64,000 nt of DNA, from assembly GCA_019428945.1 (NCBI GenBank), contig JAHYJM010000005.1, forward strand, positions 1,562-65,561. The letters run 5' to 3'. Every line of letters begins with the position of its first letter. Positions within the stretch are counted from its first letter, which is position 1. The notes under the pieces were generated by a model. That model was not told the DNA's origin. It ran no database searches and saw nothing but the letters and a program-made list of their open reading frames with translations. Position numbers and translations under genes: made by a program. Shown one piece after another: positions 7,050-33,201 of this stretch. Origin of the DNA: Bacillota bacterium. Lineage in GTDB: Bacteria; Bacillota; Dethiobacteria; DTU022.

Positions 7050-7835
7050 GTGATAAATTTGCCGTTTGCGGGAATTGATGTCGGTTCGCTCACAGCAGAA
7101 GTGGTGATTGTAGAACAGGGCAAAATTGTTAACTATACAATATGTCCCACAGGTTCCAACAGCAGAAAAGCGGCTGAAACTGCAATGAAAGAAGCGCTGC
7201 TGGGGGCAGATCTGAGCCTTTCGGATCTGCAGTACATCATTGCTACCGGTTACGGGCGTATAAATATTGATTTTGCCGATAAACGGGTTACTGAAATTAC
7301 CTGCCATGGGCGGGGCGCGCACTTTTGGAATCCCGATGTACGCACTATTATTGATATAGGCGGTCAGGACAGCAAAGTGATCAGGTTAAATACTGACGGC
7401 AGGGTTGTAGATTTTGCCATGAATGATAAGTGTGCCGCCGGCACAGGCCGTTTTTTGGAAGTGATGGCACAGGCTCTTGAAGTAGAACTGACCGGTCTGG
7501 CGGAACTGAGCGGAAAAGCGGAAAATACAGTTTCGATCAGCAGCATGTGTACTGTATTCGCTGAATCAGAAGTTGTATCCCTTATTGCCCGGGGGTTACC
7601 TCGGGAAGATATCGCCCGAGGGTTGCATCAGTCTATAGCAGATCGCACAGCCGGCCTTGTTAAAAGAGTTGGTCTTGAAGAACTTGTGATGATGACCGGT
7701 GGTGTGGCACGGAACAGTGCTGTTGTAAGCGCTCTTAATGACAAGCTGAAAACCGTAATCATCATTCCTCCCGAACCACAAATAGCAGGAGCGCTTGGCG
7801 CAGCTCTTCTGGCCGAAGAAGAAATAAAAACCTGA
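7050..7835 (+). CDS. BadF/BadG/BcrA/BcrD-family ATPase, HgdC-type CoA-substrate-specific enzyme activase (ATP-dependent [4Fe-4S] electron-transfer protein)
   Basis: Acetate/sugar-kinase-fold motifs GIDVGS and IIDIGGQDSK. The two conserved bridging-cluster cysteines are present (MNDKCAAGTGRFLE, SSMCTVFAESEV). Start is GTG at 7050 or TTG at 7059. Confidence 0.8.
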   Translation: MINLPFAGIDVGSLTAEVVIVEQGKIVNYTICPTGSNSRKAAETAMKEALLGADLSLSDLQYIIATGYGRINIDFADKRVTEITCHGRGAHFWNPDVRTIIDIGGQDSKVIRLNTDGRVVDFAMNDKCAAGTGRFLEVMAQALEVELTGLAELSGKAENTVSISSMCTVFAESEVVSLIARGLPREDIARGLHQSIADRTAGLVKRVGLEELVMMTGGVARNSAVVSALNDKLKTVIIIPPEPQIAGALGAALLAEEEIKT

Positions 7836-7859: not shown

Positions 7860-8411
7860 TTAATTTAATATATGCCCCAGGCCGTTATGCTGCAGGCTTT
7901 TTTTGATCTGAGTGCTTAATGCGGCTGCCAGCAGAACTTTTAGCAGGTCAAAAGGAATAAAAGGCAGCACACCTACAAGTAAAACCTGCTTGATGCTGTA
8001 TTGCATTAAGAGGGCAAGCTGCAGGGAGCCAAAGAGATATATGAAAAATATTGCCGGCAGCAAAGAAACAGCATTAAGAACATAAGAGTTCTTATAATAT
8101 TTTTTCATTAACAGACCGGTTATCAGGACTGCAGGTATAAATCCCCAGAGATAACCGCCGGTTGGGCCTGTAAGCATGTATATGCCACCTCTGGCCATCG
8201 AAAAAACAGGCGCTCCGGCTGCGCCAAGCAACAGGTAGGCAATTATTGTTAAAATACCTGCCCTGGGGCCCAGTAGGGCTCCGGCAATTAGCACGCCTAC
8301 CACCTGACCGGTGAAGGGTACCGGGCTGAAGGGCAGGGGTATTGCCACCTGTGCCAGAACAGCAATCAAGGCGGTAAATAAAGCAGAAGCGGTTAATTTT
8401 GCTATAGGCAT
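7860..8411 (-). CDS. bioY: Biotin transporter BioY (ECF-type S component)
   Basis: 183 aa polytopic membrane protein with a BioY-like sequence (GQVVGVLIAGALLGPRAG...PTGGYLWGF). It follows birA directly in the same operon. Confidence 0.85.
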   Translation of the reverse strand: MPIAKLTASALFTALIAVLAQVAIPLPFSPVPFTGQVVGVLIAGALLGPRAGILTIIAYLLLGAAGAPVFSMARGGIYMLTGPTGGYLWGFIPAVLITGLLMKKYYKNSYVLNAVSLLPAIFFIYLFGSLQLALLMQYSIKQVLLVGVLPFIPFDLLKVLLAAALSTQIKKSLQHNGLGHILN

Positions 8412-9542: not shown

Positions 9543-9574
9543 CAAAAAAAAGACGCGGTTTGCATAACCGCGTC
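9543..9574 (-). terminator. Strong hairpin GACGCGGTT-TGCAT-AACCGCGTC with a U8 tract on the minus strand, upstream of the birA operator
   Basis: 9-bp perfect stem; an A8 run precedes it on the plus strand, which gives U8 after the stem on the minus strand. It would block minus-strand read-through into birA. Confidence 0.35.
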
Positions 9575-9698
9575 CAGCAAATATATATAAAAAGAGGGGG
9601 TCAACTCACATTTATTATAAAGGCTTAACATTACAGGAATATTACAATCAGGTTTTTTTTTCATTACATTAATAAAATTTTAATGAGGGAGTAATAAA

Positions 9699-11465
9699 AT
9701 GCGGCGTGCAGCCGATTTTGTGACAACTAAGCCGGTAATACTCGGAAGGGAAGCCAACGTTGAAAAAGTTCTTGATATTTTACTTAAGGCTGAAGATGGT
9801 TTAATTTGTCTGGGCAAAAACGGGATAATCAACCAGGTTATAACCTGTGAATCGGCTTTAGGTTCCATTAAAAACGCTTCAGGCAGTCGGAAACTGACTG
9901 CTGCCGATCTGGCGTTGAAGAAATTGGAAACTACCGGTACTGATACGTTTTGGCCCAATTTTATCGATAAACTTAATAACAACGGGATTGTGGCTGTTTT
10001 TGATTCGAACAAAACTATAATTGGAGTAATAACAATTAACAGTATTCTGAAAGAGCTGGCGGGTAAGACATTGGAGCTGGAACGAGAAATTGATGCAATT
10101 ATTAATTTTACATCTGACGAGATATTTGTAGCCGATGGTGACGGCAGGGTGTTGAGGGCTAATTCTGTATTTGAAGATAATTTTGGCGTCAAACTCGATT
10201 CCGTAATCGGCAAAAATGTTAATGAACTTGAAAAGAAAAAGATCTTCACACCATCTGTTACCAGGTTGGTTATCGATAAAAAGAGCACTCAAACAGTAAT
10301 TCAGTCCCGCCGCGATGGAAGGAAACTTTTAGCTACAGGTACCCCGGCTTTTAATGAAGACGGGTCAGTGTTCAGGGTTATTGTAAATACAAGAGATATT
10401 ACAAAGCTGAACAACTTAAAACAGCAGCTTGAAGAAGCGGAGTTGTTAAAAAACCGTTACCAGCAGGAACTGATTGAACTGCGGCAGGGTTACCTGCACA
10501 GTGGTGAAATTGTGGCTTCGAGTCCGGTCATGCTGGATCTCCTGAAAGTCGCCACTAAAATAGCTGCAGTTGATTCCACAGTGCTGCTTACAGGTGAATC
10601 AGGGGTGGGTAAGGGAATGATAGCCCGCTACATTCATAACACCAGCCCCCGCGCCGACAAACCTTTTACAGTCGTTAATTGTGGAGCGATTCCGGAAAAT
10701 CTTCTTGAAAGCGAGCTTTTCGGTTATGCCGGAGGCGCTTTTACAGGCGCCCGGCGTGAAGGAAAAATTGGTAAGCTGGAACTTGCTAACGAAGGGACCC
10801 TGTTTCTGGATGAAATAACCGAGCTTCCACTTAATCTGCAGGTTAAACTGCTGCATGTAATCCAGGAAGGAATAATCAGCCGTATTGGCGGAACCCGTGA
10901 GATAAAACTCAACCTGCGCTTTATTGCCGCTACAAACCGCGATATTGCCGGCCTGGTGGAGGAAGGCAAATTTCGTGAAGACCTCTATTTCAGGCTTGAT
11001 GTAATACCCTTAATAGTACCTCCTCTTCGGGAGAGACATGAAGATATTAAAGCCCTGGCCGGGCAGTTTTTAAGCAGACTTAACAGACGTTATCAGAAAG
11101 ATAAGTATTTCAACTCTGAAGTATATAGTTTCCTTGAGGAATATAACTGGCCGGGAAATGTTCGTGAACTGGAAAACCTGGTTGAAAGAATGATGATTGT
11201 AGTAGACAGCAGTGAGATAGGAGCAATCCATCTACCCCGGCGACTGACGGGAATTGAACAGGCGGAGATTCCCAAAAAACCGGCCATAAAGCTTGAGCCC
11301 TTAAAAGAGGCAAAAGAGAGTCTTGAACGTAGGCTGCTTATCGAAGCTCTTCGTGTTTGCAGGACAACATATGAAATTGCAGAGATTCTTAAAATAGACC
11401 AGTCAACGGTAGTACGCAAATTGAAGAAGTATAACCTGGTTACCGGGGGGCACGAAATAGATTAA
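9699..11465 (+). CDS. Sigma-54-dependent transcriptional activator (bEBP) with N-terminal CBS-like and PAS sensor domains (RocR/AcoR-like)
   Basis: AAA+ sigma-54 interaction domain with GESGVGKGMIARYIHNTSPR, the GAFTGA-like GGAFTGA motif, and a C-terminal Fis-type HTH (TYEIAEILKIDQSTVVRKLKK). Confidence 0.9.
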   Translation: MRRAADFVTTKPVILGREANVEKVLDILLKAEDGLICLGKNGIINQVITCESALGSIKNASGSRKLTAADLALKKLETTGTDTFWPNFIDKLNNNGIVAVFDSNKTIIGVITINSILKELAGKTLELEREIDAIINFTSDEIFVADGDGRVLRANSVFEDNFGVKLDSVIGKNVNELEKKKIFTPSVTRLVIDKKSTQTVIQSRRDGRKLLATGTPAFNEDGSVFRVIVNTRDITKLNNLKQQLEEAELLKNRYQQELIELRQGYLHSGEIVASSPVMLDLLKVATKIAAVDSTVLLTGESGVGKGMIARYIHNTSPRADKPFTVVNCGAIPENLLESELFGYAGGAFTGARREGKIGKLELANEGTLFLDEITELPLNLQVKLLHVIQEGIISRIGGTREIKLNLRFIAATNRDIAGLVEEGKFREDLYFRLDVIPLIVPPLRERHEDIKALAGQFLSRLNRRYQKDKYFNSEVYSFLEEYNWPGNVRELENLVERMMIVVDSSEIGAIHLPRRLTGIEQAEIPKKPAIKLEPLKEAKESLERRLLIEALRVCRTTYEIAEILKIDQSTVVRKLKKYNLVTGGHEID

Positions 11466-11493
11466 TGAAAAGCAACTGAAAATCCAACGGTTT

Positions 11494-11530
11494 GATGTGT
11501 AAATGCATTAAAATGATGTGTAAATGCATT
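11494..11530. promoter_or_regulatory. Two direct copies of GATGTGTAAATGCATTA, 20 bp centre-to-centre; candidate upstream activating sequences for the sigma-54 activator
   Basis: Exact 17-nt repeat at 11494-11510 and 11514-11530. Each contains the palindrome AATGCATT. They lie ~120-150 bp upstream of the -24/-12 element. Confidence 0.45.
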
Positions 11531-11646
11531 AGAGCTGGTGATATTTTTCTCAAATAAAAAAGTACATAAATCAATTATCCTGGGATAAGGCCTTAATTAG
11601 AGGCCTTATTCTTACTTTAAAGTTATTGGAGCCAGAAAAACAAATA

Positions 11647-11662
11647 TGGCACCAATATTGCA
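11647..11662 (+). promoter_or_regulatory. Sigma-54 (-24/-12) promoter TGGCAC-N5-TTGCA
   Basis: Exact consensus tggcaccaatattgca. It sits ~45 nt upstream of the aminotransferase ATG, with RBS GAAAGGGG in between. Confidence 0.75.
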
Positions 11663-11707
11663 CTATAATATGTTAAGAAACTCACAAGCAGAAAGGGGTT
11701 TAACTTT

Positions 11708-13051
11708 ATGAACCAGAAACCAGTTGGACCGGACTACGGGCCGGGACCGAACTCGCAGGAACTGATGAAATTGCGCGACGAAAATGTAGCCCGCGGCATA
11801 TCATACGTGATGCCGGTATTTGTCAAAGAAGCCAAAGGAGCGATTATTACCGATGTAGACGGCCGGGAATATATTGACTTTGTCAGCGGCATCGGGGTTT
11901 CGAACTTCGGCAACAACTACCCGGCCGTAGTCGAAGCGATTAAGAACCAGGCTGACCAGTATTTACACACCTGCTTCATGGTGACCATGTATGAACCTTA
12001 CGTAAAACTGGCCGAGAAACTGAATAAGATTACGCCCGGGGAATTTCAGAAGAAAACCGCCTTTTTCAACAGCGGGGCCGAAGCGGTTGAAAATGCCGTC
12101 AAGCTCTCGCGCCGCTACACGAAAAAGACAGCGATGATTTCGCTGGAGTGCGCCTTTCACGGCCGTACCCTGATGACAATGACCCTTACCTCGAAAGTAA
12201 AACCCTATAAATACGGCTTTGGACCCTTTGCCACCGACGTATACAAGATTCCGTCGGCCTACTGTTACCGCTGCCGCTTCGGGATGACCTACCCGGCCTG
12301 CGACCTGCACTGCGCCAGGTACTTAGAGCAGTTCTTTGCTGTTGAATGCGCCGCAGACAACGTTGCCGCCGTTATCGCCGAACCGGTCCAGGGCGAAGGC
12401 GGCTTTATCGTTCCCCCTAAAGACTACTTTAAAGTGCTCCATGAAATATGCCGGAAAAACGATGTGCTTCTAATCTTAGATGAAATCCAATCCGGCTTCT
12501 ACCGCACCGGAGGCGCCTTTGCCAGTGAGCACTACGGCATCGCCCCTGATTTGATCACCATGGCCAAATCGCTGGCCGGCGGAGTGCCGATCAGCGCGCT
12601 GACCGGCAGGGCCGAAGTGATGGATGCCGCAGGGCCCGGAGAAATCGGCGGTACCTATGGCGGTAACCCGATCGGCTGTGCCGCCGGACTGGCCGTGATG
12701 GAAGCGATCGAGAAAGACGATATTGCCGGCCAGGCGAAAAAGACAGCGGAACTTACAGCGACCCGGTTAGATGAAATGGCGGAGAAATATTCACTTATCG
12801 GCGAACATCGCGGTTTGGGCGCCATGCGGGCGATTGAGCTGGTAAAAGACAAAGCCAGCAAAGAGCCGGCAGCCGACGCGGCTAAGGCGATCGTCAAACG
12901 CTGCCATGAACGCGGCCTGATCATTATCACCGCCGGGATCTTTGGCAACGTGATCCGCTTCCTGATGCCCGTTAATATTACGGAGGAACAGCTAAACCGG
13001 GGCCTTGATATCCTGGAAGATGCTATTGCTGAAGAGCAGGGAGGAAAGTAA
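11708..13051 (+). CDS. Class-III PLP-dependent aminotransferase (GabT / omega-amino-acid:2-oxoglutarate aminotransferase family)
   Basis: 447 aa. Family-typical motifs: FNSGAEAVENAVKL, ILDEIQSGFYRTG, and the PLP lysine region DLITMAKSLAGG. Confidence 0.85.
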   Translation: MNQKPVGPDYGPGPNSQELMKLRDENVARGISYVMPVFVKEAKGAIITDVDGREYIDFVSGIGVSNFGNNYPAVVEAIKNQADQYLHTCFMVTMYEPYVKLAEKLNKITPGEFQKKTAFFNSGAEAVENAVKLSRRYTKKTAMISLECAFHGRTLMTMTLTSKVKPYKYGFGPFATDVYKIPSAYCYRCRFGMTYPACDLHCARYLEQFFAVECAADNVAAVIAEPVQGEGGFIVPPKDYFKVLHEICRKNDVLLILDEIQSGFYRTGGAFASEHYGIAPDLITMAKSLAGGVPISALTGRAEVMDAAGPGEIGGTYGGNPIGCAAGLAVMEAIEKDDIAGQAKKTAELTATRLDEMAEKYSLIGEHRGLGAMRAIELVKDKASKEPAADAAKAIVKRCHERGLIIITAGIFGNVIRFLMPVNITEEQLNRGLDILEDAIAEEQGGK

Positions 13052-13054
13052 AAT

Positions 13055-14851
13055 TTGTATGGAGTTTACGGCAAGCTTTTAATCGTTGATCTCAGTAAGA
13101 TGGACATCATCGAAAAAGAGCTTGAGCAAGAAGTATTTTATGAATTCCTGGGAGGCAGGGGCCTGGGCGCTTACCTGCTGGCAAAAATGCTGGCACCGGG
13201 TGAGGATCCGCTCTCTCCGAACAACGTTATTGTTTTTGCTACTGGACCTGCCACTGATTCAGGCCTGGCTCCTGCCTCCGGTTATGGTATTTTTACAAAA
13301 TCACCGGTAACCGGTCTTTTTACAGAAGCCTATGCGAAGGGATACTTGCCGTCGTTAATTAAGAGGACGGGTTATGATGCAATTGTTATAACCGGCGCGG
13401 CTTCGCATCCGAGTTTCATTACTATTTCTGAACTGGGTGTTAATTTCTATGATGCTGTAGAAACATGGGGAATGGATACAGATACAGCTGAAGGATCTAT
13501 TCTTAATGTTGTTGGTGCAACTGATTCAGAAGTGCTGGTAATCGGGCCTGCCGGGGAAAATATGATTGCTTCTGCCTGCTTAAAAAGTAATCGCCACAGA
13601 AGTTTCGGACGAGCTGGATTAGGGGCTGTTTTCGGATCGAAAAATTTAAAAGGCGTCGTTTTTAGGGGTGGCGCTAAAGCTGAGCTTTATGAAAGTGAAG
13701 CTTTTACTGGCTGGAATGATCAGTTCATTAGACGTTGTAATAATGAGGAAGAAGCGAAGGCGATAAAATTTTTTAGTATACCTTCGCTTGTAACCGTTGC
13801 CAATACAAGAGGCTTTTTTACTTCCGGTTATTGGGCTGAAGGACGGCTTGAGGGATGGGAAAAAATTGTTGAATCTTACCGCTCGGGTAAAGTGAGTGCA
13901 AAGGGTTTGAGTTGTCATAGTTGTTTATTAAGCTGCGACCAAGAAACCTTTATAAACTATGATCATTGCGGAAGAGGAGTTAAAGGACTGGATTACAACT
14001 ACTTAAGCGCGATTGGCGGCCTTTGCCGCATTACCAGCCTGGAAGATATAGTCAGCCTTGTAGACCTCTGCGAACAGCTCGGTATTGACCCTGTCAGCGC
14101 CGGGAATATAGCATCATTTGCTATTGAAGCCGGGTTAAGAGGCAAATTGGATAACCCGCCTCTTTATGGCAACTCTGATCGAATTGCCTTATTTTTGGAA
14201 TCCGTTGCATATAGGAAAGGTGAAGGAGTCATCTTTGCCGATGGTATCAGGGAAGCCGCCGCCATGTTGGATATGCCTGACCTTGCAGTGCATTTCAGAG
14301 GGCTTGAACCTGCCGGCTTTGATCCCAGGGTTATTAAAATAGTCGCCCTGTCGCATTTAGTATCGGGGTTCGGAGAATCAAATCCGGAGAGTTTCTATCT
14401 CTCCGGCCTCGGTTATGGCCTTTTTGATACAGAAAAGAGGAATAACCCTGCCCGTATTTTTGTTGAATACGAAGATAAAATGAATATTATTGACAGTCTT
14501 GTCTTCTGCCGAAACGCCCATAAGCTTATTCAATGGGAAAATTTAATAGCAGTTGTATTCCTTCTTACCGGAAAGCGTTACAGCGCAGCCGGCCTTCGCG
14601 CTGTTTCGGCCCGAAATCTTTCAACAATCAGGCTCTTCAATCTGAGCGAAGTCACTACGGGTATGGGAGACAGCCTGCCCTCCAGATTTATAGAAGAGCC
14701 GATAAATAATGAAAAAGATTTGGTAAAAGTTGAAGAATTGGAGCTGATGCTTAAAGATTATTATTTACTCAGAGGTTGGAATGAGAAAGGTATACCCCCT
14801 GCGGGGAACAATAATCAACAATTATTAAGGAGGACAATACAATGTCTGTAG
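13055..14851 (+). CDS. aor: Aldehyde:ferredoxin oxidoreductase, tungsten-dependent AOR family
   Basis: 598 aa. AOR N-terminus MYGVYGKLLIVDLS and the [4Fe-4S] ligand motif CHSCLLSC. Tungstate transporter genes are in the same window. Confidence 0.85.
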   Translation: MYGVYGKLLIVDLSKMDIIEKELEQEVFYEFLGGRGLGAYLLAKMLAPGEDPLSPNNVIVFATGPATDSGLAPASGYGIFTKSPVTGLFTEAYAKGYLPSLIKRTGYDAIVITGAASHPSFITISELGVNFYDAVETWGMDTDTAEGSILNVVGATDSEVLVIGPAGENMIASACLKSNRHRSFGRAGLGAVFGSKNLKGVVFRGGAKAELYESEAFTGWNDQFIRRCNNEEEAKAIKFFSIPSLVTVANTRGFFTSGYWAEGRLEGWEKIVESYRSGKVSAKGLSCHSCLLSCDQETFINYDHCGRGVKGLDYNYLSAIGGLCRITSLEDIVSLVDLCEQLGIDPVSAGNIASFAIEAGLRGKLDNPPLYGNSDRIALFLESVAYRKGEGVIFADGIREAAAMLDMPDLAVHFRGLEPAGFDPRVIKIVALSHLVSGFGESNPESFYLSGLGYGLFDTEKRNNPARIFVEYEDKMNIIDSLVFCRNAHKLIQWENLIAVVFLLTGKRYSAAGLRAVSARNLSTIRLFNLSEVTTGMGDSLPSRFIEEPINNEKDLVKVEELELMLKDYYLLRGWNEKGIPPAGNNNQQLLRRTIQCL

Positions 14852-16134
14852 AAGTACAAAAAAGCAAAAAAGAAGATAATACTCTAACTGCTACTTTAAA
14901 TATGATTAAACAGTCAATTGAGCTGTCAGAGCTTTCAAATGATGTTTATGAACATCTCAAAACACCGATGAGGTTTGTTGAAGTCGCTGTCCCGGTTGAA
15001 ATGGATGACGGCAGCACCAAGGTTTTTACCGGTTACCGTTCTCAGCACAATAATGTTTTCGGGCCTTATAAAGGCGGTATTCGTTATCACCCTGCTGTGA
15101 CCACCGACAGCATAAAAGCCCTGTCAATGTGGATGACGCTGAAATGTTCACTGGTTGGTGTTCCGTTTGGCGGTGGCAAAGGAGCTATTGTCTGCGATCC
15201 TCTTACAATGTCAATGAAAGAGAAAGAAAGAATGACTCGTAGTTATGTCCGGGTTCTCGGCTCAATCCTGGGACCGGAAACTGATATTCCTGCTCCCGAT
15301 GTTGCTACAGACGGACAGGTTATGGCCTGGATTGCAGATGAATACAGCAACATAATGAGAGTGCCTTCTTTTGGGGTTGTTACCGGTAAACCTTTGGCTG
15401 TGGGCGGTTGTGTAGGCCGGACAGAGGCAACAGGCAAAGGTGTTTTCTTCGTGACCAGGGAAGCGGCAGCAGCAACTGGTATGGATTTGGAGAAAGCCCG
15501 TGTAGCCGTACAGGGTTTTGGAAATGTAGGCAGTAATGCCGCAATTCTCTTTGCTGAAGCAGGCAGCCCTGTTGTAGCTGTCAGTGATGTTAGCGGTGGC
15601 GTATATAACCCGAAGGGACTGGATATTCTTGCCCTGGTCAATCATGTTGAGAGAACCGGTTTTGTAAAAGGATTTCCCGGTGGAGACGAAATAACAAATG
15701 CAGACCTTCTGACGATTGACTGCGATGTGCTTATTCCGGCAGCTCTTGAAAATCAGTTGAAAGGTGATAATGCTGATCAGGTCAAAGCGAAAATAATTAT
15801 TGAGGGAGCCAATGGCCCGACTACTCCCGAAGCCGATCATATCCTTAAGGATAATAATATATTACTTGTTCCTGATATTCTCGCCAACAGCGGAGGGGTT
15901 ACCGTATCTTACTTCGAGTGGGTCCAGAACAACTATGGTTTCCGCTGGGATTTAGGCACAGTTAACCGCCGACTGGAAGAGAAAATGACTGAAGCATTCA
16001 AGCTGGTTTACAGCTTCTATTGCGAAAAGTGCATCGGTTCCGATATGCGTACAGGTGCGTACAGGTATTCAATTCAACGCCTGGCTGAAGCAATGCAGTT
16101 CCGTGGCTGGATTCGCAACGGTACGCACAGTTAA
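14842..16134 (+). CDS. gdhA: Glutamate dehydrogenase (Glu/Leu/Phe/Val dehydrogenase family)
   Basis: Catalytic-lysine region KGGIRYHP...GVPFGGGKG and the Rossmann motif GFGNVGS. Confidence 0.9.
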   Translation: MSVEVQKSKKEDNTLTATLNMIKQSIELSELSNDVYEHLKTPMRFVEVAVPVEMDDGSTKVFTGYRSQHNNVFGPYKGGIRYHPAVTTDSIKALSMWMTLKCSLVGVPFGGGKGAIVCDPLTMSMKEKERMTRSYVRVLGSILGPETDIPAPDVATDGQVMAWIADEYSNIMRVPSFGVVTGKPLAVGGCVGRTEATGKGVFFVTREAAAATGMDLEKARVAVQGFGNVGSNAAILFAEAGSPVVAVSDVSGGVYNPKGLDILALVNHVERTGFVKGFPGGDEITNADLLTIDCDVLIPAALENQLKGDNADQVKAKIIIEGANGPTTPEADHILKDNNILLVPDILANSGGVTVSYFEWVQNNYGFRWDLGTVNRRLEEKMTEAFKLVYSFYCEKCIGSDMRTGAYRYSIQRLAEAMQFRGWIRNGTHS

Positions 16135-16147
16135 AAATAGTCCAGTT

Positions 16148-16182
16148 AAAGGGACAGGTGAGCGCCTGTCCCTTTAATTAGG
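16148..16182 (+). terminator. Rho-independent terminator after gdh
   Basis: AAAGGGACAGG-TGAGCG-CCTGTCCCTTT is an 11-bp perfect stem, followed by AATTAGGTTT. Confidence 0.7.
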
Positions 16183-16301
16183 TTTAATGTAGTAATAAAA
16201 ACGAATATTTGTTATAATTCTATATGAATTTCGGTATCTTTCTGTCACTTCCTGTAGGCTGAAGTTTAGAATCATAAATAGTGGTTTTCAAATCTCTTTA
16301 A

Positions 16302-16580
16302 ATGAGAGGAGAAGATATATTGTCGCGGGTTGTAAATACTGAAATAACTGCTGACCTTCTAATTAACCAGGATTGGTGTAAGGGGTGCGGCATCTGTATT
16401 GCTTTCTGTCCAAGGGAAGCTCTTTTTTTAGATGAAAAGGGAAAAGCAGAAAAAAATAATGAGAAGTGTACCTGTTGTGGAATTTGCGAAACATTTTGCC
16501 CTGATTTTGCACTGACTGTAGTAAAGAGGAGGCTTTCAGCAGATGGCGGAGACAAAGCCGGTTTTAATGCAAGGCAATGA
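16302..16580 (+). CDS. korD: 2-oxoacid:ferredoxin oxidoreductase delta subunit (2x[4Fe-4S] ferredoxin)
   Basis: Two CxxCxxCxxxCP motifs (CKGCGICIAFCP, CTCCGICETFCP). The true start is probably TTG near 16320, after the RBS GAGAGGAGAAG. The 3' end overlaps korA. Confidence 0.75.
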   Translation: MRGEDILSRVVNTEITADLLINQDWCKGCGICIAFCPREALFLDEKGKAEKNNEKCTCCGICETFCPDFALTVVKRRLSADGGDKAGFNARQ

Positions 16581-17670
16581 AGCCTGTGCTGAAGGTGCGA
16601 TCAGCGCCGGTGTAAGATTTTATGCCGGCTATCCGATAACACCATCAACAGAAATAGCCGAGCACATGGCAGCAAGATTGCCTGATCTCGGCGGTGTTTT
16701 TATCCAGATGGAAGATGAAATAGCCAGTATGGCTGCCGTGATTGGCGCCTCTATCGGTGGAATGCGAACCCTGACTGCAACAAGTGGTCCGGGATTTTCT
16801 TTGAAACAGGAGAATCTCGGCTATGCAATCATGGCTGAAATTCCCTGTGTTGTTGTTAATGTTCAGCGTATGGGACCAAGCACCGGAGTCCCGACAGCGC
16901 CGGCCCAGGGAGATGTTATGCAGGCCCGCTGGGGCACTCATGGTGATCACCCTATTATCGTTTTTTCACCGGCCTCTGTCTATGAAACTTTTTATCTTAC
17001 CATTGCTGCTGTCAACCTCAGCCAGAAGTTAAGGCAGCCGGTTATTATGCTGCTCGATGAAGTTATAGGGCATATGCGCGAAAAAGTGATGATTCCGGAG
17101 GCCGGTAAACTATTGGTGGAAAAATCTAGTGATAATATTCCTGCCGATTGGAAGCCTTATGACGAGAAGGGGTTGACTCCCCTGGTACCCTTTGGTTTTG
17201 GCCATTATTATCATGTAACCGGACTTTTCCATGACCAGTATGGTTTTCCCACAGGTGATCCGACCCAGGTTGAAAGAGCCCTGGACAGAATTCATGGTAA
17301 GCTGGAAAAGTATCGTGATGAAATAGTTCTAACCAACTACATCGGTCACAAGGAGCCCCGTGTTGTGATTATAACTTATGGTTGTACGGTCAGATCAGCC
17401 CGTGCTGTGGTTAAAAAAGCTTACTGGCAGAACCGTTTGCCGGTGGGACTGCTCAGTTTGCAGACAATTTGGCCTTTCCCCGGGAAAGAAGTTGCTGCTA
17501 TAGCAAAACAGGCAGATGTGATTATTGTGCCTGAAATGAACATGGGACAAATAGTCGGTGAAGTAGAAAGGTACGCCTGCGGTAATGCCGAGGTTGTGCC
17601 CCTTAACCGGTATGACGGAGAAATGATGTCTCCCGATCAAATATCCGAACTGTTAGGAAGGTGGCTGTAA
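16543..17670 (+). CDS. korA: 2-oxoacid (2-oxoglutarate/pyruvate-type):ferredoxin oxidoreductase alpha subunit
   Basis: N-terminus LMQGNEACAEGAISAGVRFYAGYPITPSTEI is typical of KorA/PorA. Confidence 0.85.
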   Translation: MAETKPVLMQGNEACAEGAISAGVRFYAGYPITPSTEIAEHMAARLPDLGGVFIQMEDEIASMAAVIGASIGGMRTLTATSGPGFSLKQENLGYAIMAEIPCVVVNVQRMGPSTGVPTAPAQGDVMQARWGTHGDHPIIVFSPASVYETFYLTIAAVNLSQKLRQPVIMLLDEVIGHMREKVMIPEAGKLLVEKSSDNIPADWKPYDEKGLTPLVPFGFGHYYHVTGLFHDQYGFPTGDPTQVERALDRIHGKLEKYRDEIVLTNYIGHKEPRVVIITYGCTVRSARAVVKKAYWQNRLPVGLLSLQTIWPFPGKEVAAIAKQADVIIVPEMNMGQIVGEVERYACGNAEVVPLNRYDGEMMSPDQISELLGRWL

Positions 17671-18476
17671 TGGAACAGCTGACCCAGGATTATTTACGCA
17701 CAAAAAAATTGCCTCATATCTGGTGTCCCGGTTGTGGAAACGGGATAGTTACTGCTGCGCTTGTAAGGGCTATTGAGCGTACCGGCTATGACCAGAGCGA
17801 GGTAGTGATTGTATCAGGAATTGGCTGTTCATCCAGGGCGGCCGGTTATTTAAATTTCAACACACTGCATACAACTCATGGCAGAGCGCTTGCATTTGCA
17901 ACCGGTTTGAAAATGGCCAGACCTGAACTGAAGCTCTTTGTTATCATGGGTGACGGAGACTGCAGTGCCATAGGCGGTAATCACTTTATTCATGCTGCAA
18001 GAAGGAATATCGATCTTAATGCAGTAATAATCAATAACCATATTTACGGGATGACAGGGGGACAGCATTCACCCTTAACCCCGACGGGTATGAAGGCAAC
18101 CACCGCTCCCGGCGGCACACTTGAGAGAGCCTTTGACCTGCTTGAACTGGCAAGGGGAGCCGGAGCTACTTTTGGAGCCCGTGGTAACGCTGCCCAGCCG
18201 CGACAGCTGGAACAGCTCATACTAAGGGCTGCCAATCATAAAGGATTTTCAGTTCTTGAAGCGCTTTCTCCCTGTCCGATTGCTTACGGCAGGCGCAATA
18301 AACTTGGCGGGGCAGTTGAGATGCTTCGTGAAATGAAAGACAGCGCTGTTTCGATGGAGAAAGCTTCAGGTATGGAGCCGGAAGAGCTGGAAGGTAAGAC
18401 CTTAAGCGGCGTCATATTCTCAACCGAAGCCCCGGAATTTTCGGAAGAATATTACCGGTCAATCGGCAAGGCGTAA
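17661..18476 (+). CDS. korB: 2-oxoacid:ferredoxin oxidoreductase beta subunit (TPP-binding)
   Basis: WCPGCGNG and the TPP motif GDGDCSAIGGNH. Confidence 0.85.
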   Translation: MAVMEQLTQDYLRTKKLPHIWCPGCGNGIVTAALVRAIERTGYDQSEVVIVSGIGCSSRAAGYLNFNTLHTTHGRALAFATGLKMARPELKLFVIMGDGDCSAIGGNHFIHAARRNIDLNAVIINNHIYGMTGGQHSPLTPTGMKATTAPGGTLERAFDLLELARGAGATFGARGNAAQPRQLEQLILRAANHKGFSVLEALSPCPIAYGRRNKLGGAVEMLREMKDSAVSMEKASGMEPEELEGKTLSGVIFSTEAPEFSEEYYRSIGKA

Positions 18477-18492
18477 AGCGGGAGGTAATTAT

Positions 18493-19071
18493 TTGAGTAA
18501 CAGGCAGGAAATTTTATTAACCGGAGCAGGCGGGCAGGGACTTATTCTCGCTTCAATCGTCCTGGCTGAAGCTGCGGTTAACGACAATAAAAATGTTGTA
18601 CAAACCCAGTCTTACGGCCCTGAAGCCCGTGGCGGGGCCAGTATGGCCGGGGTAATAATTGATGTTGATACAATCGAATATCCGAAGGTCACCAAACCTT
18701 CTGTGCTGCTCTGTATGAACCAGGCTTCATTTAACAAATATATTCCCAAGGTTGAACCGGGTTGTACTATCATCGTTGATTCAACATTTGTCAGCGGCCC
18801 TTACCGCGAAGATTATAAAATAAATGCTCTGCCTATTACGCAGGCCGCAAGAGAACAGCTGGGGCGCGAGGTTGTTGCCAACATGCTTGCTCTGGGCGCT
18901 ATTAATGCCGCCACAGGCCTGGTTGATCGGGAAATTTTCAGAGAAAGCATTTTTAAGTTAGCGCCCAAGGGAAGTGGTGAGCTCAATCAAAAGGCTTTTG
19001 ACCTGGGTTACCGACTCTATAATGAGGGTATGGGGCAGAATCTCGGAATATCTTCTCAAACCCCTCAATAA
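18493..19071 (+). CDS. korG: 2-oxoacid:ferredoxin oxidoreductase gamma subunit
   Basis: 192 aa. ILLTGAGGQGLILAS is the gamma-subunit N-terminus. Confidence 0.85.
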   Translation: MSNRQEILLTGAGGQGLILASIVLAEAAVNDNKNVVQTQSYGPEARGGASMAGVIIDVDTIEYPKVTKPSVLLCMNQASFNKYIPKVEPGCTIIVDSTFVSGPYREDYKINALPITQAAREQLGREVVANMLALGAINAATGLVDREIFRESIFKLAPKGSGELNQKAFDLGYRLYNEGMGQNLGISSQTPQ

Positions 19072-20326
19072 AAGGGTTATCCTGGTTGTTGTCGTTACCG
19101 TTATTGCTACTGAGCTTTTTATTGTAACTGATATAGGGCCTTTTCGATTTTCAATTGGCACTGTTGTTTTTGTCTACGCTATTCTCAGCCTCAACCACAT
19201 CTTGATCATCCCAACAGCTGTAATGGTTGCATTCTCAACTCTTCTTCTCAGGGTTGGGTTGGACTACTTCTTTTGGCTTCCCCGCGAATATTTTAATTTT
19301 ATGGTCGCTCACCAGTATTCTGGTGTAGTTTATTTTATGCTTCTCGCTTTAATTTTAAAGTTAGGCGGTATAAGAGAAGGCACAAGAAATATATCATTAA
19401 CCCTGGTGCTCTATCTTGGTGGAGCAGTAATTCTGTCTAACCTGGCTGAAGCGCTGGTAAGGGTTTCTTCGGTTGATATTTTTACTTTAGTAAATCTGAT
19501 TATTTTAATCCTTATGTCTTCTGTACAGGTATTTCTGGTCACCAGCCTGGTTAACATCAGCCAGTTTCAGAAAACCCTGGTCATGGATGAACAGCAGCGT
19601 GTCAGTTATGAAAAGATGCTGATCATCGCTTCCGAGCTTTATGATGAGCTATTTTATATGCAGAAATCAATGGAAAACATAGAAAATATTATGGCTAAAA
19701 GTTACAATTTACACAAGCGTTTAAAAGAACTCAAGCTTGCCGACAGGTCTTTTGAACATTCTGCTCTCGAAATTGCGGAAGAAGTGCATGAAGTAAAAAA
19801 AGATACAATCCGTATTCTGGCCGGTTTGGGTGAAGCGCTCAAAATCAGAAAAGAAAAACCGGTTATGAACCTCTCTGAGATACTTGACCTTGTCATTAAA
19901 ACCAACCGTAGTTACAGTCAGAGTCTCGATAAGAAAATTCAGTACAGTCTGAGGATCGAAGAAGATCTTGAAGTTGAGCAGATCTACCCACTGCTGGCAA
20001 TTCTTAACAACCTGGTTTCTAACGCGGTCGAAGCAATAACATCTGAGGGGTTAATTCACCTGGTGATCAGGTGCAGAAACTCTATCCTGAGAATATATGT
20101 TTGTGACAACGGCGAACCAATAAAGGATCGTGACAGAAACCTTATGTTCGAACCCGGTTACACCACCAAGTTTTCAGCCGAAGGAGTTCCATCGACAGGC
20201 ATAGGTCTTGCTTATGTCAAAGGCCTGGTGGAAAACTTCAGGGGCAGGGTTGTGTACAGGAAAATTAAAGAAGAAAAATGTTTTATTGTTATGATTCCAG
20301 CTGGAAGTATTTCCGGAGGCCAATAA
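18974..20326 (+). CDS. Multi-pass membrane sensor histidine kinase (GHKL ATPase; GlnK/LytS-like family)
   Basis: N-terminal hydrophobic helices. H-box region RSFEHSALEIAEEVHEVKKD. GHKL N-box and G-box (NNLVSNAVEAI, GIGLAYVKGLVE). The annotated start overlaps korG by ~100 nt and no clean in-frame start exists after the korG stop, so the start is uncertain. Confidence 0.7.
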   Translation: MVSSIKRLLTWVTDSIMRVWGRISEYLLKPLNKRVILVVVVTVIATELFIVTDIGPFRFSIGTVVFVYAILSLNHILIIPTAVMVAFSTLLLRVGLDYFFWLPREYFNFMVAHQYSGVVYFMLLALILKLGGIREGTRNISLTLVLYLGGAVILSNLAEALVRVSSVDIFTLVNLIILILMSSVQVFLVTSLVNISQFQKTLVMDEQQRVSYEKMLIIASELYDELFYMQKSMENIENIMAKSYNLHKRLKELKLADRSFEHSALEIAEEVHEVKKDTIRILAGLGEALKIRKEKPVMNLSEILDLVIKTNRSYSQSLDKKIQYSLRIEEDLEVEQIYPLLAILNNLVSNAVEAITSEGLIHLVIRCRNSILRIYVCDNGEPIKDRDRNLMFEPGYTTKFSAEGVPSTGIGLAYVKGLVENFRGRVVYRKIKEEKCFIVMIPAGSISGGQ

Positions 20327-20327
20327 G

Positions 20328-21254
20328 ATGAATGATTTTACTTTTTTCATAATTGACGATGACCTTGCCTGCCGTCGGATCCTGTCACAGATTATTGAAG
20401 ATGAAAGTCTTGGTGAAGTGATTGGCGAACTGCCTGATGGGCATGGTAATGTTGTCGGAACAATATTATACCATCAGCCCGAGGTGCTGCTTGTTGACCT
20501 CTTAATGCCGGGTAAAGATGGAATAGAGATTGTTGAACAGCTCAGAGATAGAAACTACCGGGGTAAAATTGTGATGATATCGCAGGTGGAAAAAAAGGAA
20601 ATGGTTGCCCAGGCATATGCTGCCGGTATCGAATTCTATATAAATAAGCCTGTTAACAGGGTTGAAGTTATTTCAGTAATCAAGAATATAACCGAACGTT
20701 TGAGAATGGAACGTTCATTTGAGCAAATGAGAGATTCACTCGAAGCCCTGGACCGAATCGGCAGTCTCAGAAGAGGTGCAGTATCCAGGGAAAGCAGGCA
20801 GCCCGATCAGGATATAATCAAAGAAAAAACACGTGAAATATTAGCTGATCTGGGATTGATTGGTGAACCGGGAAGCCATGATCTGATCCAGGTTGTCCTG
20901 TTTTTGAATACTGTTCCCGATGTGGAGAAATATCTTGGCGAATACAGGCGCCTTAAAGATCTTTACCAGGCAGTTCAGGAAAAATATTTACGTGAAGAAG
21001 AAAAACAGACTGATGTGCGCGCTATTGAGCAGCGGGTGCGTCGTGCGATCAGGCATGCTATGGATCATGTGGCTGCCCTGGGCATTGAAGATTATAATAA
21101 CCCTACCTTTGAACGCTACGGATCAAAGTTCTTCGATTTTAATGAGCTTCGCGTGAAAATGAAAGAGTTGGAGCAGGAGATGGAGGTACCGACAAAGACC
21201 CGGGTAAACATCAAACAGTTTATAAACGCTCTTTACTGGGAAATTAAAAAGTAA
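20328..21254 (+). CDS. Response regulator with receiver domain and GlnL/YcbB-type C-terminal output domain
   Basis: Receiver domain with DD...D...K signature (FIIDDD, LLVDLLMPGKDG, ISQVEKKEM). The ~180-aa non-HTH C-terminal domain resembles the YcbB family. The gene follows the kinase by 1 nt. Confidence 0.7.
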   Translation: MNDFTFFIIDDDLACRRILSQIIEDESLGEVIGELPDGHGNVVGTILYHQPEVLLVDLLMPGKDGIEIVEQLRDRNYRGKIVMISQVEKKEMVAQAYAAGIEFYINKPVNRVEVISVIKNITERLRMERSFEQMRDSLEALDRIGSLRRGAVSRESRQPDQDIIKEKTREILADLGLIGEPGSHDLIQVVLFLNTVPDVEKYLGEYRRLKDLYQAVQEKYLREEEKQTDVRAIEQRVRRAIRHAMDHVAALGIEDYNNPTFERYGSKFFDFNELRVKMKELEQEMEVPTKTRVNIKQFINALYWEIKK

Positions 21255-25607: not shown

Positions 25608-26933
25608 ATGGGCAGCGCGGTCTTTAAAGGAGGCGTTCATCCGGACTATCATAAAGAGATAACAGCGACTATGGCTGTATCGAAGATGAAAGCCCCTTCT
25701 ACAGTAGTAATTCCTCTGCAACAGCATATTGGCGCACCCTGTGAACCTCTCGAAGGAATCGAAGAAGGTGTCCGAGTTAAAATGGGGCAAAAAATTGCCG
25801 ACAGTAGTGGTTTTGTTTCCGCTCCCATCCATGCAAGTGTATCGGGTACAATTAAAGCCATCGGCCCGTACAATCATCCCCTCGGACGTCCGGTTAATGC
25901 GATTACGATTGAGTCGGATGGACAGGAAGAGTGGGATGAGAAAGTTAAACCGGCAGGTAATCTGGAGAACCTTACCCCGGATGATCTACGCAAAATCATT
26001 CGTGAAGCCGGAATTGTCGGCTTGGGCGGAGCCACCTTCCCGGCTCATGTCAAGTTGTCGCCACCACCGGAGAAAAAAATTGATTATGTAGTTATCAACG
26101 GCGCTGAGTGTGAACCGTACCTGACAGCGGATCACCGGGTTATGCTTGAAAATCCTGAAGAAATAATCTTCGGTCTAAAAGTGATGATCAAAGCGTTGGG
26201 TGCCGAGAAAGGCGTGATCGGTATTGAAGACAATAAAGCCGATGCAATCAGGGTTATGGAGCAGGCAGTTGCCGGTGAAGATAACATAACAGTAGCCCAT
26301 TTGCATACCAAATACCCCCAGGGCGCTGAAAAAATGCTGATCCAGGTTACAACCGGGCGTATAGTACCTTCCGGCGGCCTTCCTCTTGATATAGGTGTTG
26401 TAAACCATAACGTGGGGACAGCCGTTGCCATAACAAGCACTATACGCGAAGGTAAGCCTTTAATTGAAAGAGTTGTTACAGTTACAGGTTCTGGAATCAA
26501 TAAACCGGCAAATCTTCTGGTAAAGGTGGGAACACTGGTTTCAGAAGTGCTTGATGTCTGCGGTGGTTTAAAGGAAGATACCAGAAAGCTGATCACTGGC
26601 GGCCCGATGATGGGTCTGGCCCAGCCAAATACTGATATTCCGGTGATTAAAGGTACCTCCGGAATTCTCGCCCTGACCGACCAGGATGTATATATTGCAG
26701 AAAGCAGTCCCTGTATCCGCTGTGCCAAATGTGTGGAGGCTTGTCCGGTTCAACTGCTGCCTACATCTATAGCGCAGGCAGCCGAGCATGACCTGTTTAA
26801 AAAAGCCGAAAAACTCCATGCCATGGATTGTTTTGAGTGTGGCTGCTGTTCATATGTTTGTCCTTCAAAAATACCTTTAACTCAGTTAATAAGAATTGCC
26901 AAAGCGGAAATAGCGAAAGCGAATAAAAAGTAG
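25608..26933 (+). CDS. rnfC: Rnf complex subunit C (NADH-binding, 2x[4Fe-4S])
   Basis: GGVHPDYHKE N-terminus and the C-terminal ferredoxin motifs CIRCAKCVEACP, CFECGCCSYVCP. Confidence 0.9.
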   Translation: MGSAVFKGGVHPDYHKEITATMAVSKMKAPSTVVIPLQQHIGAPCEPLEGIEEGVRVKMGQKIADSSGFVSAPIHASVSGTIKAIGPYNHPLGRPVNAITIESDGQEEWDEKVKPAGNLENLTPDDLRKIIREAGIVGLGGATFPAHVKLSPPPEKKIDYVVINGAECEPYLTADHRVMLENPEEIIFGLKVMIKALGAEKGVIGIEDNKADAIRVMEQAVAGEDNITVAHLHTKYPQGAEKMLIQVTTGRIVPSGGLPLDIGVVNHNVGTAVAITSTIREGKPLIERVVTVTGSGINKPANLLVKVGTLVSEVLDVCGGLKEDTRKLITGGPMMGLAQPNTDIPVIKGTSGILALTDQDVYIAESSPCIRCAKCVEACPVQLLPTSIAQAAEHDLFKKAEKLHAMDCFECGCCSYVCPSKIPLTQLIRIAKAEIAKANKK

Positions 26934-26964
26934 CCTGCTTTGCAAGGGAGGGAAGTGATAGATA

Positions 26965-27930
26965 ATGGATAACAAAATGGTAGTTTCATCTTCTCCGCAT
27001 ATCAGGAGCCTTGAATCAGTTCAAAGTGTTATGATTGATGTTCTGATAGCCTTGTTTCCCGCTGCCCTGATGGCAGTGCTCCTATTTGGATACAAGGCTT
27101 TGATAACCATGATTATATCTGTGGTAACAGCAATGCTTGTAGAAGCTCTTTGGTTACGGAAGCGTGATATATTTAGCGACGGCAGCGCCGCAGTCACAGG
27201 CCTTCTGTTCGCCATGGTTCTGCCGCCAGCACCGCCGTGGTGGCTGGTAGTTGTAGGTGTGGCCTCGGCGATTATAATCGGCAAACAGGTTTTCGGCGGT
27301 ATCGGTTACAATATCTTTAACCCTGCCCTGGTTGGCAGAGCGGTTGTTGTAATGTCCTGGGGTGGTTATCTGGTTGGGCGAGTATGGTCGCAGCCGCAGC
27401 CTTTTGCCTTAACGGCAGATATTTCTGCTATAACTACGGCGACTCCGCTCGGAGGGCAGGAAGAAGCTCTCGCGGTTAGCCTGACAAACCTCTTTATAGG
27501 CAATGTGGCCGGATGCCTCGGTGAAACATCAACCCTGGCGCTTCTGCTCGGCGCTGCATGGCTCTATTACAAGGGGCATATCGATCTGCGTATACCCGGG
27601 GGATTTATTGGTGTCGTATTCATAATGGGCGCTATCTTCGGTGGAGGTTTTTACGGTGGAGCTCTGACAACAGGTCTTTTCCATGTATTGGCGGGAGGCG
27701 TAATGCTTGGTGCGCTATTCATGGCTACCGACATGGTTACAACGCCAGTTACAGCCAAGGGCAAATTAATATTTGGTATTGGTTGCGGAATTATTACAAT
27801 GATGATCAGGTTGTGGGGCACCTTGCCTGAAGGTGTTACCTTTGCCATATTATTAATGAATGCTGTAACCCCGATTATCGATAACTTTACAGTGCCACAA
27901 CAGTTTGGGGGGGTGAAGAAGAGTGCGTAA
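26965..27930 (+). CDS. rnfD: Rnf complex subunit D (NqrB-like membrane subunit)
   Basis: SSPHIRS N-terminus, polytopic membrane protein, and the flavinylation-region motif TGATPLG-like. Confidence 0.9.
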   Translation: MDNKMVVSSSPHIRSLESVQSVMIDVLIALFPAALMAVLLFGYKALITMIISVVTAMLVEALWLRKRDIFSDGSAAVTGLLFAMVLPPAPPWWLVVVGVASAIIIGKQVFGGIGYNIFNPALVGRAVVVMSWGGYLVGRVWSQPQPFALTADISAITTATPLGGQEEALAVSLTNLFIGNVAGCLGETSTLALLLGAAWLYYKGHIDLRIPGGFIGVVFIMGAIFGGGFYGGALTTGLFHVLAGGVMLGALFMATDMVTTPVTAKGKLIFGIGCGIITMMIRLWGTLPEGVTFAILLMNAVTPIIDNFTVPQQFGGVKKSA

Positions 27931-29702: not shown

Positions 29703-29746
29703 GTGAATCAGACTGATATGTCTGTTAGCCTGGGCAGGAGGATAAT

Positions 29747-30328: not shown

Positions 30329-30365
30329 AGACATTCTTTGATATAATTTACTATTCTTATGCGAG

Positions 30366-31977: not shown

Positions 31978-31979
31978 TC

Positions 31980-33192: not shown

Positions 33193-33201
33193 AAGGGGGA
33201 G

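Follow-up and report, generated by a model that had tools for sequence, protein, structure and literature searches.

Among described systems, the nearest experimental precedent for the locus reported here is the GabR/gabT cluster of Bacillus thuringiensis, whose activator responds to gamma-aminobutyric acid (GABA) and succinic semialdehyde as inducers and binds a region with 21-bp repeats (PMC4279683). We analysed 64,000 nucleotides of a Bacillota genome of the class Dethiobacteria (contig JAHYJM010000005.1; this whole stretch is called the window), in which an activator gene is followed by genes for a GabT-family aminotransferase, a protein of the aldehyde ferredoxin oxidoreductase (AOR) family and a glutamate dehydrogenase (GDH). 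In the reading that we favour and regard as reasonably probable, these three genes would form a sigma-54-dependent catabolic operon with its activator encoded just upstream, the AOR step is doubtful, and the adjoining korDABC genes for a 2-oxoacid:ferredoxin oxidoreductase (KOR) are separate. The locus extends the known sigma-54 amino-acid catabolic operons (GabR/gabT and RocR/roc) as a variant of them.

The resemblance to B. thuringiensis includes an activator with PAS, AAA+ and helix-turn-helix (HTH) domains encoded beside its target, a TGGCA...TTGCA promoter ahead of a GabT-family gene, and 21-bp repeats in the region that the activator binds or, in the window, is predicted to bind. In the B. 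thuringiensis cluster, however, gabT is accompanied by a semialdehyde dehydrogenase gene, gabD, which is co-transcribed with gabR, whereas in the window the aminotransferase is followed by an AOR-family protein and a GDH in one operon. The window activator also differs from GabR in an extra N-terminal region of ~120 residues and in scoring best against PrdR.

The roc system of B. subtilis (rocDEF, rocABC, rocG) likewise relies on sigma-54 and a PAS-type activator. In it RocD is a class-III aminotransferase, RocA oxidises the aldehyde and RocG is a GDH specific for NAD. The window departs from it in having a GabT-family enzyme instead of an ornithine aminotransferase (OAT), the AOR family instead of an aldehyde dehydrogenase, and a single compact operon with no arginase or permease.

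Two further systems bear on the AOR-family gene. The Clostridium AorR/aor-moaD system is a reconstructed sigma-54 regulon with the motif TGT-N10-12-ACA and a proposed function in acid reduction for alcohol synthesis (PMC6615313). Like the window, it places an AOR-family gene of Firmicutes under a sigma-54 promoter and a dedicated activator; unlike the window, it has no aminotransferase or GDH, and its AOR is presumed to be catalytically canonical. The FOR enzyme of Pyrococcus furiosus has been proposed to oxidise glutaric semialdehyde, the chemistry that the logic of our operon demands (PMC12096430). According to a 2026 survey, a physiological role has been defined for only 5 of 92 tungsten oxidoreductase clades (PMC13328260).

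A conserved sigma-54 switch

Related loci were found through the AOR protein. They are syntenic, come from uncultured Bacillota and are all flanked by clpX-lon-engB-bioY-birA and valS-folC. Proteins encoded by the neighbouring genes are 75–96% identical between the window and these loci, and the intergenic DNA is mostly diverged. A profile scan of genome contigs with the AOR alignment gave mostly distant AORs among the matches listed, of which L009 (labelled Syntrophomonadaceae, from soda-lake sediment) was the sole locus of the same clade. A first-pass annotation of the window had described an activator gene, two exact repeats, a TGGCAC-N5-TTGCA promoter and the enzyme genes named above. All of these were found, and its interpretation of the locus is partly supported. 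The features of the control region are:

9699–11465, plus strand: gene for a bacterial enhancer-binding protein (bEBP), with a weak CBS-like N-terminus, PAS, Sigma54_activat AAA+, AAA_lid and HTH domains (Pfam, NCBIfam)
11493–11510, unstranded: upstream activator sequence (UAS) site 1, TGATGTGTAAATGCATTA, an 18-nt dyad TGATG-N8-CATYA, with an equivalent site in related loci
11514–11531, unstranded: UAS site 2, a copy identical to site 1, at a 21-bp period
11582–11612, plus strand: hairpin with a U-rich tail between UAS and promoter (free energy, dG, -18.5 kcal/mol; z -3.6)
11647–11662, plus strand: sigma-54 promoter with -24/-12 elements, TGGCACCAATATTGCA, an exact TGGCAC-N5-TTGCA

The activator matches PF00158 at 222 bits, carries HTH_8/HTH_50 at its C-terminus, and contains both the GGAFTGA loop and a Walker A motif, GESGVGKG. 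Of the two sensor domains first assigned to it, PAS is present and the CBS-like domain is borderline (24.8 bits vs a 24-bit cutoff). Among curated families PrdR (NF041552) fits the protein best, with an alignment over the full length at 426 bits, below the 795-bit cutoff; judged by these scores, it is PrdR-like in architecture, yet not PrdR. The gene is kept upstream of the operon in nine related loci.

The promoter at 11647–11662, which had been called perfect, is indeed exact. It is the sole match to TGGCAY-N5-TTGCW in 64 kb (0.17 expected), and its TGGCA and TTGC are invariant in 8/8 related loci, where TGGCA(C/T)-N5-TTGC lies ~45–60 bp ahead of the first gene. The two 17-nt repeats proposed as candidate UAS are also exact copies (11494–11510 and 11515–11531, one base beyond the end first given), and a preceding T makes each unit 18 nt. 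Both sites leave a footprint in all eight related loci, with the consensus T(G/A)ATG-N8-(G)CAT(C/T)A. Since this consensus is a dyad, the repeats are not simple direct repeats; they are therefore read as two copies of a palindromic activator site. The dyads lie 116–154 bp upstream of the -24 element, inside the 80–200 bp expected of activator sites, with the bEBP gene adjacent. This arrangement of predicted promoter and repeats is beyond chance, as the positions are fixed in 8/8 loci despite the diverged intergenic sequence.

The hairpin at 11582–11612 is probably the terminator of the bEBP gene, and a hairpin with a T-run was seen at the equivalent spot between UAS and promoter in most related loci. 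One extra match to TGATG-N8-CATYA, at 7991–8008, was treated as chance, being a single site inside the bioY coding sequence. On the other side of the bEBP gene, the DNA that separates its start from the birA promoter holds a canonical intrinsic terminator on the minus strand (9551–9575; dG -16 kcal/mol, U8 tail). It is directed leftward and has no evident gene upstream of it on that strand.

The aminotransferase and the glutamate dehydrogenase

The three genes behind the promoter, and the hairpin that follows them, are:

11708–13051, plus strand: GabT-family omega-amino acid:2-oxoglutarate aminotransferase, class III (TIGR00700)
13055–14851, plus strand: AOR/WOR-family protein of a variant type, group A (AFOR_N and AFOR_C, Pfam, 202 and 226 bits)
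14842–16134, plus strand: GDH, RocG/GudB-like (Pfam ELFV domains)
16142–16180, plus strand: hairpin directly 3' of the GDH gene (dG -26.3 kcal/mol, z -7.5), with no U-tract

Group A here denotes the AOR-like protein of the window together with its nearest relatives, seven clusters at 90% identity (P0001–P0006 and P0011). A gap of 3 nt separates the aminotransferase gene from the AOR-like gene, whose end overlaps the GDH start by 10 nt; an overlap of these two genes is present in all group A loci. A hairpin after the GDH gene was seen in each of the 7 loci examined, and in L003, L005, L006 and L008 a canonical T-run goes with it. In the window its position marks the predicted end of the operon, though for want of a U-tract it is a weak terminator there.

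The aminotransferase scores 554.9 on TIGR00700 (GABAtrnsam), above the cutoff of 506.65, and stays under the cutoffs of the narrower PRK models. It had been proposed that the substrate might be predicted from active-site residues, and these do form a GabT-type set, from which the chain length of the substrate is unreadable. Aligned with Escherichia coli GabT, the protein keeps I50, R141, E211, D239, Q242, K268, T297 and R398, and has I for V241 and F for Y138. I50, R141, E211, K268 and R398 comprise the PLP lysine and the residues that recognise the two carboxylates. The kept residues fit an omega-amino acid with a distal carboxylate as predicted donor and 2-oxoglutarate as acceptor.

These data also bear on an arginine/ornithine route of the RocR type, in which the aminotransferase would be an ornithine delta-aminotransferase, the AOR would stand in for RocA (glutamate semialdehyde to glutamate) and the GDH for RocG. 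The three functions do mirror rocD, rocA and rocG, archaeal GabT-annotated enzymes can use ornithine, and in locus L065 an ornithine/putrescine carbamoyltransferase-family gene adjoins an aminotransferase-AOR pair. We nevertheless consider this route very unlikely, given that the GabT equivalog cutoff is passed, that the best PDB matches are bacterial GabT/PuuE (450–370 bits) with OAT-type structures far lower, and that the locus contains no arginase or arginine deiminase genes.

A loop of the aminotransferase at residues ~166–185 (YCYRCRFGMTYPACDLHC) holds a four-cysteine motif, C-x2-C-x9-C-x3-C, that may be a metal or Fe-S site. The loop is not in E. coli or mycobacterial GabT, is kept in the related loci, and is also found in the GabT-like aminotransferases that adjoin AORs in L024 and L065.

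For the GDH, the best PDB matches are B. subtilis-type NAD-specific GDHs. Its nearness to NAD-specific enzymes of the GudB/RocG type suggests a catabolic role.

An AOR-family protein that has lost its second shell

The AOR-like protein belongs to the same two-domain family as P. furiosus AOR (PfAOR) and FOR (PDB 1AOR and 1B25; 257 and 202 bits) and keeps the same four 4Fe-4S cysteines (C287, C290, C294 and C485, for C288, C291, C295 and C494 in PfAOR). As in Class I of the WOR family (AOR sensu stricto), no WorS/N/ABC subunit genes adjoin its gene, the neighbours being the aminotransferase and GDH genes. In aldehyde-oxidising members of the family, T243, E313, Y427 and H448 are conserved second-shell residues on which proposed mechanisms are based (PMC12096430, PMC13328260). 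We compared these positions by alignment with PfAOR, by a clade alignment, and across ~80 AOR homologues from bacteria and archaea.

In contrast to P. furiosus AOR, the window protein has I242, N315, F (in GLEPAGF) and N443 at these four positions, and G, P and F at PfAOR R76, T344 and R445. All seven of the replaced residues are near-universal in the sampled AORs, and loss of the four second-shell residues is confined to P0001–P0006 and P0011. Within group A, T243 becomes I, V or L; E313 becomes N, F, S or Y; Y427 becomes F; and H448 is N, R, Y or H, with further changes at E311, R76, T344, R445 and Y452. Because the replacements differ among the members of group A, they look like lost constraint at those sites, with no new fixed catalytic set. 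Of 92 positions that are at least 85% conserved family-wide, group A keeps 77, among them the four cluster cysteines, R182, R186, K196, D345 and D480, and has changed 15, including T243, E311, E313 and H448.

The same operon and synteny occur in four sister loci (L007, L008, L009 and L091; group B) whose AOR keeps every canonical residue. Group B sits on short branches and group A on long ones. The first-pass annotation had described a working tungsten AOR that oxidises the aldehyde with ferredoxin, a claim that the window protein does not bear out: its seven replaced residues are all kept in the sister genomes, at the same operon position. Ferredoxin-linked aldehyde oxidation is plausible for the ancestral operon, judging from the residues kept in group B, and doubtful for the window protein.

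The AOR-like gene is under purifying selection, with a ratio of nonsynonymous to synonymous substitution rates (dN/dS) of ~0.16 in two independent pairs, vs 0.02–0.08 for neighbouring genes. That it is a pseudogene was rejected on this ratio and on the intact open reading frame in all seven group A clusters. An alignment artefact behind the residue losses was rejected as well, given that HMMER posterior probabilities are high there and MAFFT agrees. An AlphaFold model of the protein, built from a 14-sequence alignment, was poor (mean pLDDT 49) and was not used. The protein appears to be a still constrained Fe-S, possibly pterin, protein.

Such a protein invites the explanation that the core of the unit is a RocG-like GDH under sigma-54 control, for which B. 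subtilis rocG is a precedent. The AOR-like protein would then be a pseudoenzyme or a neofunctionalised Fe-S partner of the GDH, and the aminotransferase an accessory feeder of amino groups. It would fit this explanation that the bEBP, AOR-like and GDH genes are found in every locus covering the region while the aminotransferase gene is missing in L005, that the AOR-like stop overlaps the GDH start throughout group A, that the second shell is dismantled with the Fe-S cysteines retained under purifying selection, and that the GDH is nearest GudB/RocG. The aminotransferase gene, however, is present in 5/6 group A loci and highly conserved (dN/dS 0.075), the sister genomes have a canonical AOR at the equivalent place, and we know of no GDH that requires an Fe-S partner. 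We therefore regard a GDH-centred unit as quite unlikely.

The C-terminal tail of the AOR-like protein (window 14810–14851), which overlaps the GDH start codon, ends in RR(T/S)(I/L)(Q/K)CL and is kept in group A (P0003–P0009 compared); the closest canonical relatives end in RRISNVCRS. With the tail comes a further conserved cysteine, which is absent from most AORs.

The kor genes form an adjacent unit

Downstream of the hairpin lie a second control region, the kor genes and a two-component system:

16229–16272, plus strand: kor promoter region, with heptamers TTTCGGT, TTTCTGT and TTCCTGT at a 10-bp period (16229–16255) and a -10 element TAGAAT (16267–16272)
16302–16580, plus strand: korD (Fer4)
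16543–17670, plus strand: korA (POR_N with PFOR_II; 516 bits vs the 411-bit PRK08659 cutoff)
17661–18476, plus strand: korB (TPP_enzyme_C)
18493–19071, plus strand: korC (POR domain)
18974–21254, plus strand: membrane histidine kinase (HATPase_c; start uncertain) and YcbB/GlnL-type response regulator (Response_reg and YcbB)

All four KOR subunits (delta, alpha, beta and gamma; 16302–19071) were recognised by Pfam and NCBIfam. The best match of KorB is of the 2-oxoglutarate type (302.6 bits, under the 364-bit cutoff); going by best matches, KorDABC would be a putative 2-oxoglutarate enzyme. The first-pass annotation had placed KOR within the sigma-54 regulon. Against this stand the hairpin after the GDH gene (7 loci) and a promoter of its own ahead of korD, a block with a sigma-70-type -10 element and phased repeats that is kept in 8/8 loci, the -10 reading TAAAAT or TATAAT elsewhere. 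In L008 this block stays with kor although a gene for a 989-residue protein splits GDH from kor. Ahead of kor we found neither a sigma-54 promoter nor a TGATG-N8-CATYA dyad. With its own conserved promoter and its separability from GDH, kor is therefore best described as an adjacent unit under its own control, tied to the operon metabolically at most, via 2-oxoglutarate. A terminator-like site at 16401–16420 was treated as chance, as it lies inside the korD Fe-S domain.

Direct repeats in phase over the -35 region are a usual feature of sites bound by response regulators, and the histidine kinase-regulator pair follows kor in most related loci; from this layout, kor is probably controlled by the downstream GlnK/GlnL-like two-component system. 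The window response regulator shares the YcbB output domain with B. subtilis GlnK-GlnL (YcbA-YcbB), but its target would be a 2-oxoacid:ferredoxin oxidoreductase and not glsA-glnT. GlnL presumably binds direct repeats with a 10-bp period, which would resemble the TTTCTGT repeats ahead of korD.

L008 is unusual in further ways. Its inserted 989-residue protein (L008 13503–16472), between GDH and kor, has receiver and PPDK_N (phosphoenolpyruvate-utilising) domains. No kinase-regulator pair follows its kor genes, and a paralogue that is only 34% identical takes the place of the GDH.

The position of kor also bears on the fullest version of the pathway, a single sigma-54/RocR-like regulon in which the aminotransferase, a working tungsten AOR, GDH and KOR make up a closed ferredoxin-reducing route. 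All of these enzyme families are adjacent with conserved synteny, the window hairpin after GDH is without a U-tract, the window holds rnf genes and a TupABC-like transporter under molybdenum/tungsten cofactor (Moco/Tuco) riboswitches, and oxidation of glutaric semialdehyde has been proposed for FOR (PMC12096430). The window AOR, however, is without T243, E313, Y427 and H448, positions that vary within its sub-clade. The promoter and repeats ahead of kor are conserved and distinct, neither a further sigma-54 promoter nor a UAS occurs there, and in L008 kor is split from GDH. A regulon of this extent is unlikely.

Aminotransferase-AOR pairs in other lineages

In a wider AOR sample drawn from species-representative genomes, a class-III aminotransferase gene is paired with an AOR gene in at least nine further loci, which belong to Desulfobacterota, Bacillota and one archaeon. 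GabT-like aminotransferases (46–56% identical) adjoin the AOR gene in six sampled loci (Desulfohalobiaceae, Desulfobacteraceae, Desulfofustis, Desulfobacterium and two other Bacillota), and lie a few kb from it in two or three further loci. The Desulfobacterota cases fall in the AOR clade sister to that of the window, and the remaining cases in distant clades. Sigma-54-like promoters are present in seven loci, counting two in which an aminotransferase is just nearby; such -24/-12 elements precede the units in L014, L018, L020, L025, L057 and L064, and several of the loci encode PAS-AAA+-HTH activators that are ~40% identical from the PAS domain onward.

In L064, from Desulfosporosinus, an amino-acid permease, a different class-III aminotransferase, a ferredoxin, an AOR and a GDH are encoded together; this module is independently assembled. 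In L024, an aminotransferase-AOR pair is followed by a gene of the 3-hydroxyisobutyrate dehydrogenase family, which includes succinic semialdehyde reductases, and faces an aldehyde dehydrogenase gene. The proposed pathway logic, from aminotransferase to AOR to GDH, is thus backed by independent pairs, by sigma-54-like promoters and by one locus with a GDH, and gene neighbourhood supports the step from aminotransferase to aldehyde to AOR as a general design. In the literature, a search for links between AOR and GabT or semialdehydes yielded no description of the module, and a paper on the Desulfovibrio sigma-54 regulome mentions neither AOR nor aminotransferases; within the literature found, the aminotransferase-AOR module is undescribed.

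The same genes could run in the reductive, biosynthetic direction: reduced ferredoxin would let the AOR-family enzyme turn a dicarboxylate into an aldehyde, which the aminotransferase would then aminate, with glutamate supplied by GDH, for instance to make GABA as a solute. Acetogen AORs do reduce acids, and Clostridium aor genes are under sigma-54/AorR (PMC6615313); osmotic or alkaline stress is suggested by the Mrp antiporter of the window and by L009, which comes from a soda lake. This direction is nonetheless extremely improbable, since the GDH is of the catabolic NAD type, the independent module in L064 has an amino-acid permease, and those Firmicute bEBPs of like architecture, characterised or reconstructed, that we consulted mostly control catabolic operons (PMC6615313, PMC4279683).

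Proposed mechanism and its significance

Comparison across the related loci establishes how the predicted switch is built and conserved, that three genes make up the unit, and that kor has a promoter apart from it. For the three-gene catabolic operon, we infer ligand sensing, GABA-type transamination, GDH recycling and, in the ancestral and group B operons, semialdehyde oxidation. The activator would bind the two dyads and, on sensing an omega-amino acid or the semialdehyde derived from it, in the manner of B. thuringiensis GabR, remodel sigma-54 RNA polymerase. The aminotransferase would pass the omega-amino group of GABA or 5-aminovalerate to 2-oxoglutarate, and GDH would restore 2-oxoglutarate, freeing ammonium and NADH. 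In the ancestral operon, a canonical tungsten AOR would oxidise the semialdehyde to the dicarboxylate with ferredoxin. The canonical form survives in the sister genomes, and Desulfobacterota and Desulfosporosinus have versions that were assembled independently. In the sub-lineage of the window, the proton-relay residues are lost in the alignments and the aldehyde step is probably impaired or changed.

Several points need to be weighed against this catabolic operon. An altered mechanism could still oxidise aldehydes, the loss of residues being read from alignments. The substrate is putative and assigned by family membership, in its chain length (GABA or 5-aminovalerate) and even in the nature of the amino donor. 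L005 keeps the AOR-like and GDH genes under an equivalent promoter and has lost the aminotransferase, which is therefore not indispensable to the unit. As neither the window nor L001 has a U-tract after the GDH hairpin, some read-through into kor is possible. No transporter genes lie in the locus, and no rpoN was seen within the 64-kb window.

A speculative and, as a whole, unlikely reading joins two propositions. The first is that sigma-54-controlled class-III aminotransferase-AOR(-GDH) operons are a widespread, undescribed ferredoxin-linked route for omega-amino compounds in anaerobes. The second is that here the AOR has been converted into a new GDH-linked protein, which would be an Fe-S, possibly pterin, protein with an aprotic and variable shell, for example a redox partner or sensor of the translationally coupled GDH, and not an aldehyde oxidase. 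If true, the first proposition would explain what otherwise orphan clades of Class I tungsten oxidoreductases do in the cell.

An operon in which a gene of the tungsten oxidoreductase family lies between those for a GabT-type aminotransferase and a GDH, under a sigma-54 activator of its own, proposes a concrete role for such an enzyme. It would oxidise semialdehydes from GABA or 5-aminovalerate with ferredoxin, a step for which the classical GABA shunt uses a dehydrogenase dependent on NAD(P). What makes the locus worth attention is both an undescribed aminotransferase-AOR module across anaerobes and a lineage that retains an AOR stripped of its catalytic shell. Canonical and catalytically stripped forms of one enzyme, in an equivalent operon of sister genomes, amount to a natural experiment, and comparing them could reveal the roles of the residues and why the AOR scaffold is retained. 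The locus also carries a warning for annotation, as the family label "aldehyde ferredoxin oxidoreductase" masks the loss of the active-site shell.

Wider genomic context

The rnf genes, a sink for reduced ferredoxin, lie 6.5 kb downstream. The region 25608–40454 (plus strand), 6–20 kb downstream, encodes rnfCDGEAB, a multi-subunit Mrp-type cation/proton antiporter and ApbE. Its RnfG homologue (27923–29071) has 382 residues and three FMN_bind matches; typical RnfG proteins are smaller.

On the minus strand, tandem Moco/Tuco riboswitch aptamers (RF01055; 49454–49576 and 49661–49784) precede genes for a TupA-like binding protein (48481–49380), a TupB-like permease (47530–48228) and an ABC ATPase (46794–47579), which look like a tungstate or molybdate uptake system under double riboswitch control. 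A third Moco/Tuco riboswitch (52078–52201, minus strand) lies ahead of two minus-strand genes, for a 251-residue protein (51130–51885) and an amino-acid-kinase-family protein (49891–50766). No Pfam model matches the former, and its NCBIfam matches (methanogenesis marker 11, TiaS) are weak. As the amino-acid-kinase family includes molybdenum storage proteins, the pair may serve in molybdenum or tungsten storage or handling. The rnf, Mrp, ApbE and Tup genes show a ferredoxin-based physiology that uses tungsten or molybdenum; they do not rescue the missing AOR residues.

A stand-alone acyl-CoA dehydratase activase gene (7050–7835, plus strand; BcrAD/BadFG family, TIGR00241, 290 bits) sits between engB and bioY in all related loci, with no gene for a dehydratase partner nearby. 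Further along the window, the T-box leader of leuS (57441–57734, plus strand; leuS at 57783–60263) contains, inside its variable region, a complete-looking tRNA-Ala(GGC) at 57608–57682. Its Rfam score is 66.9 bits, and ARAGORN predicts it too. At this place the leader has 98 nt, vs 15 nt in the T-box model.

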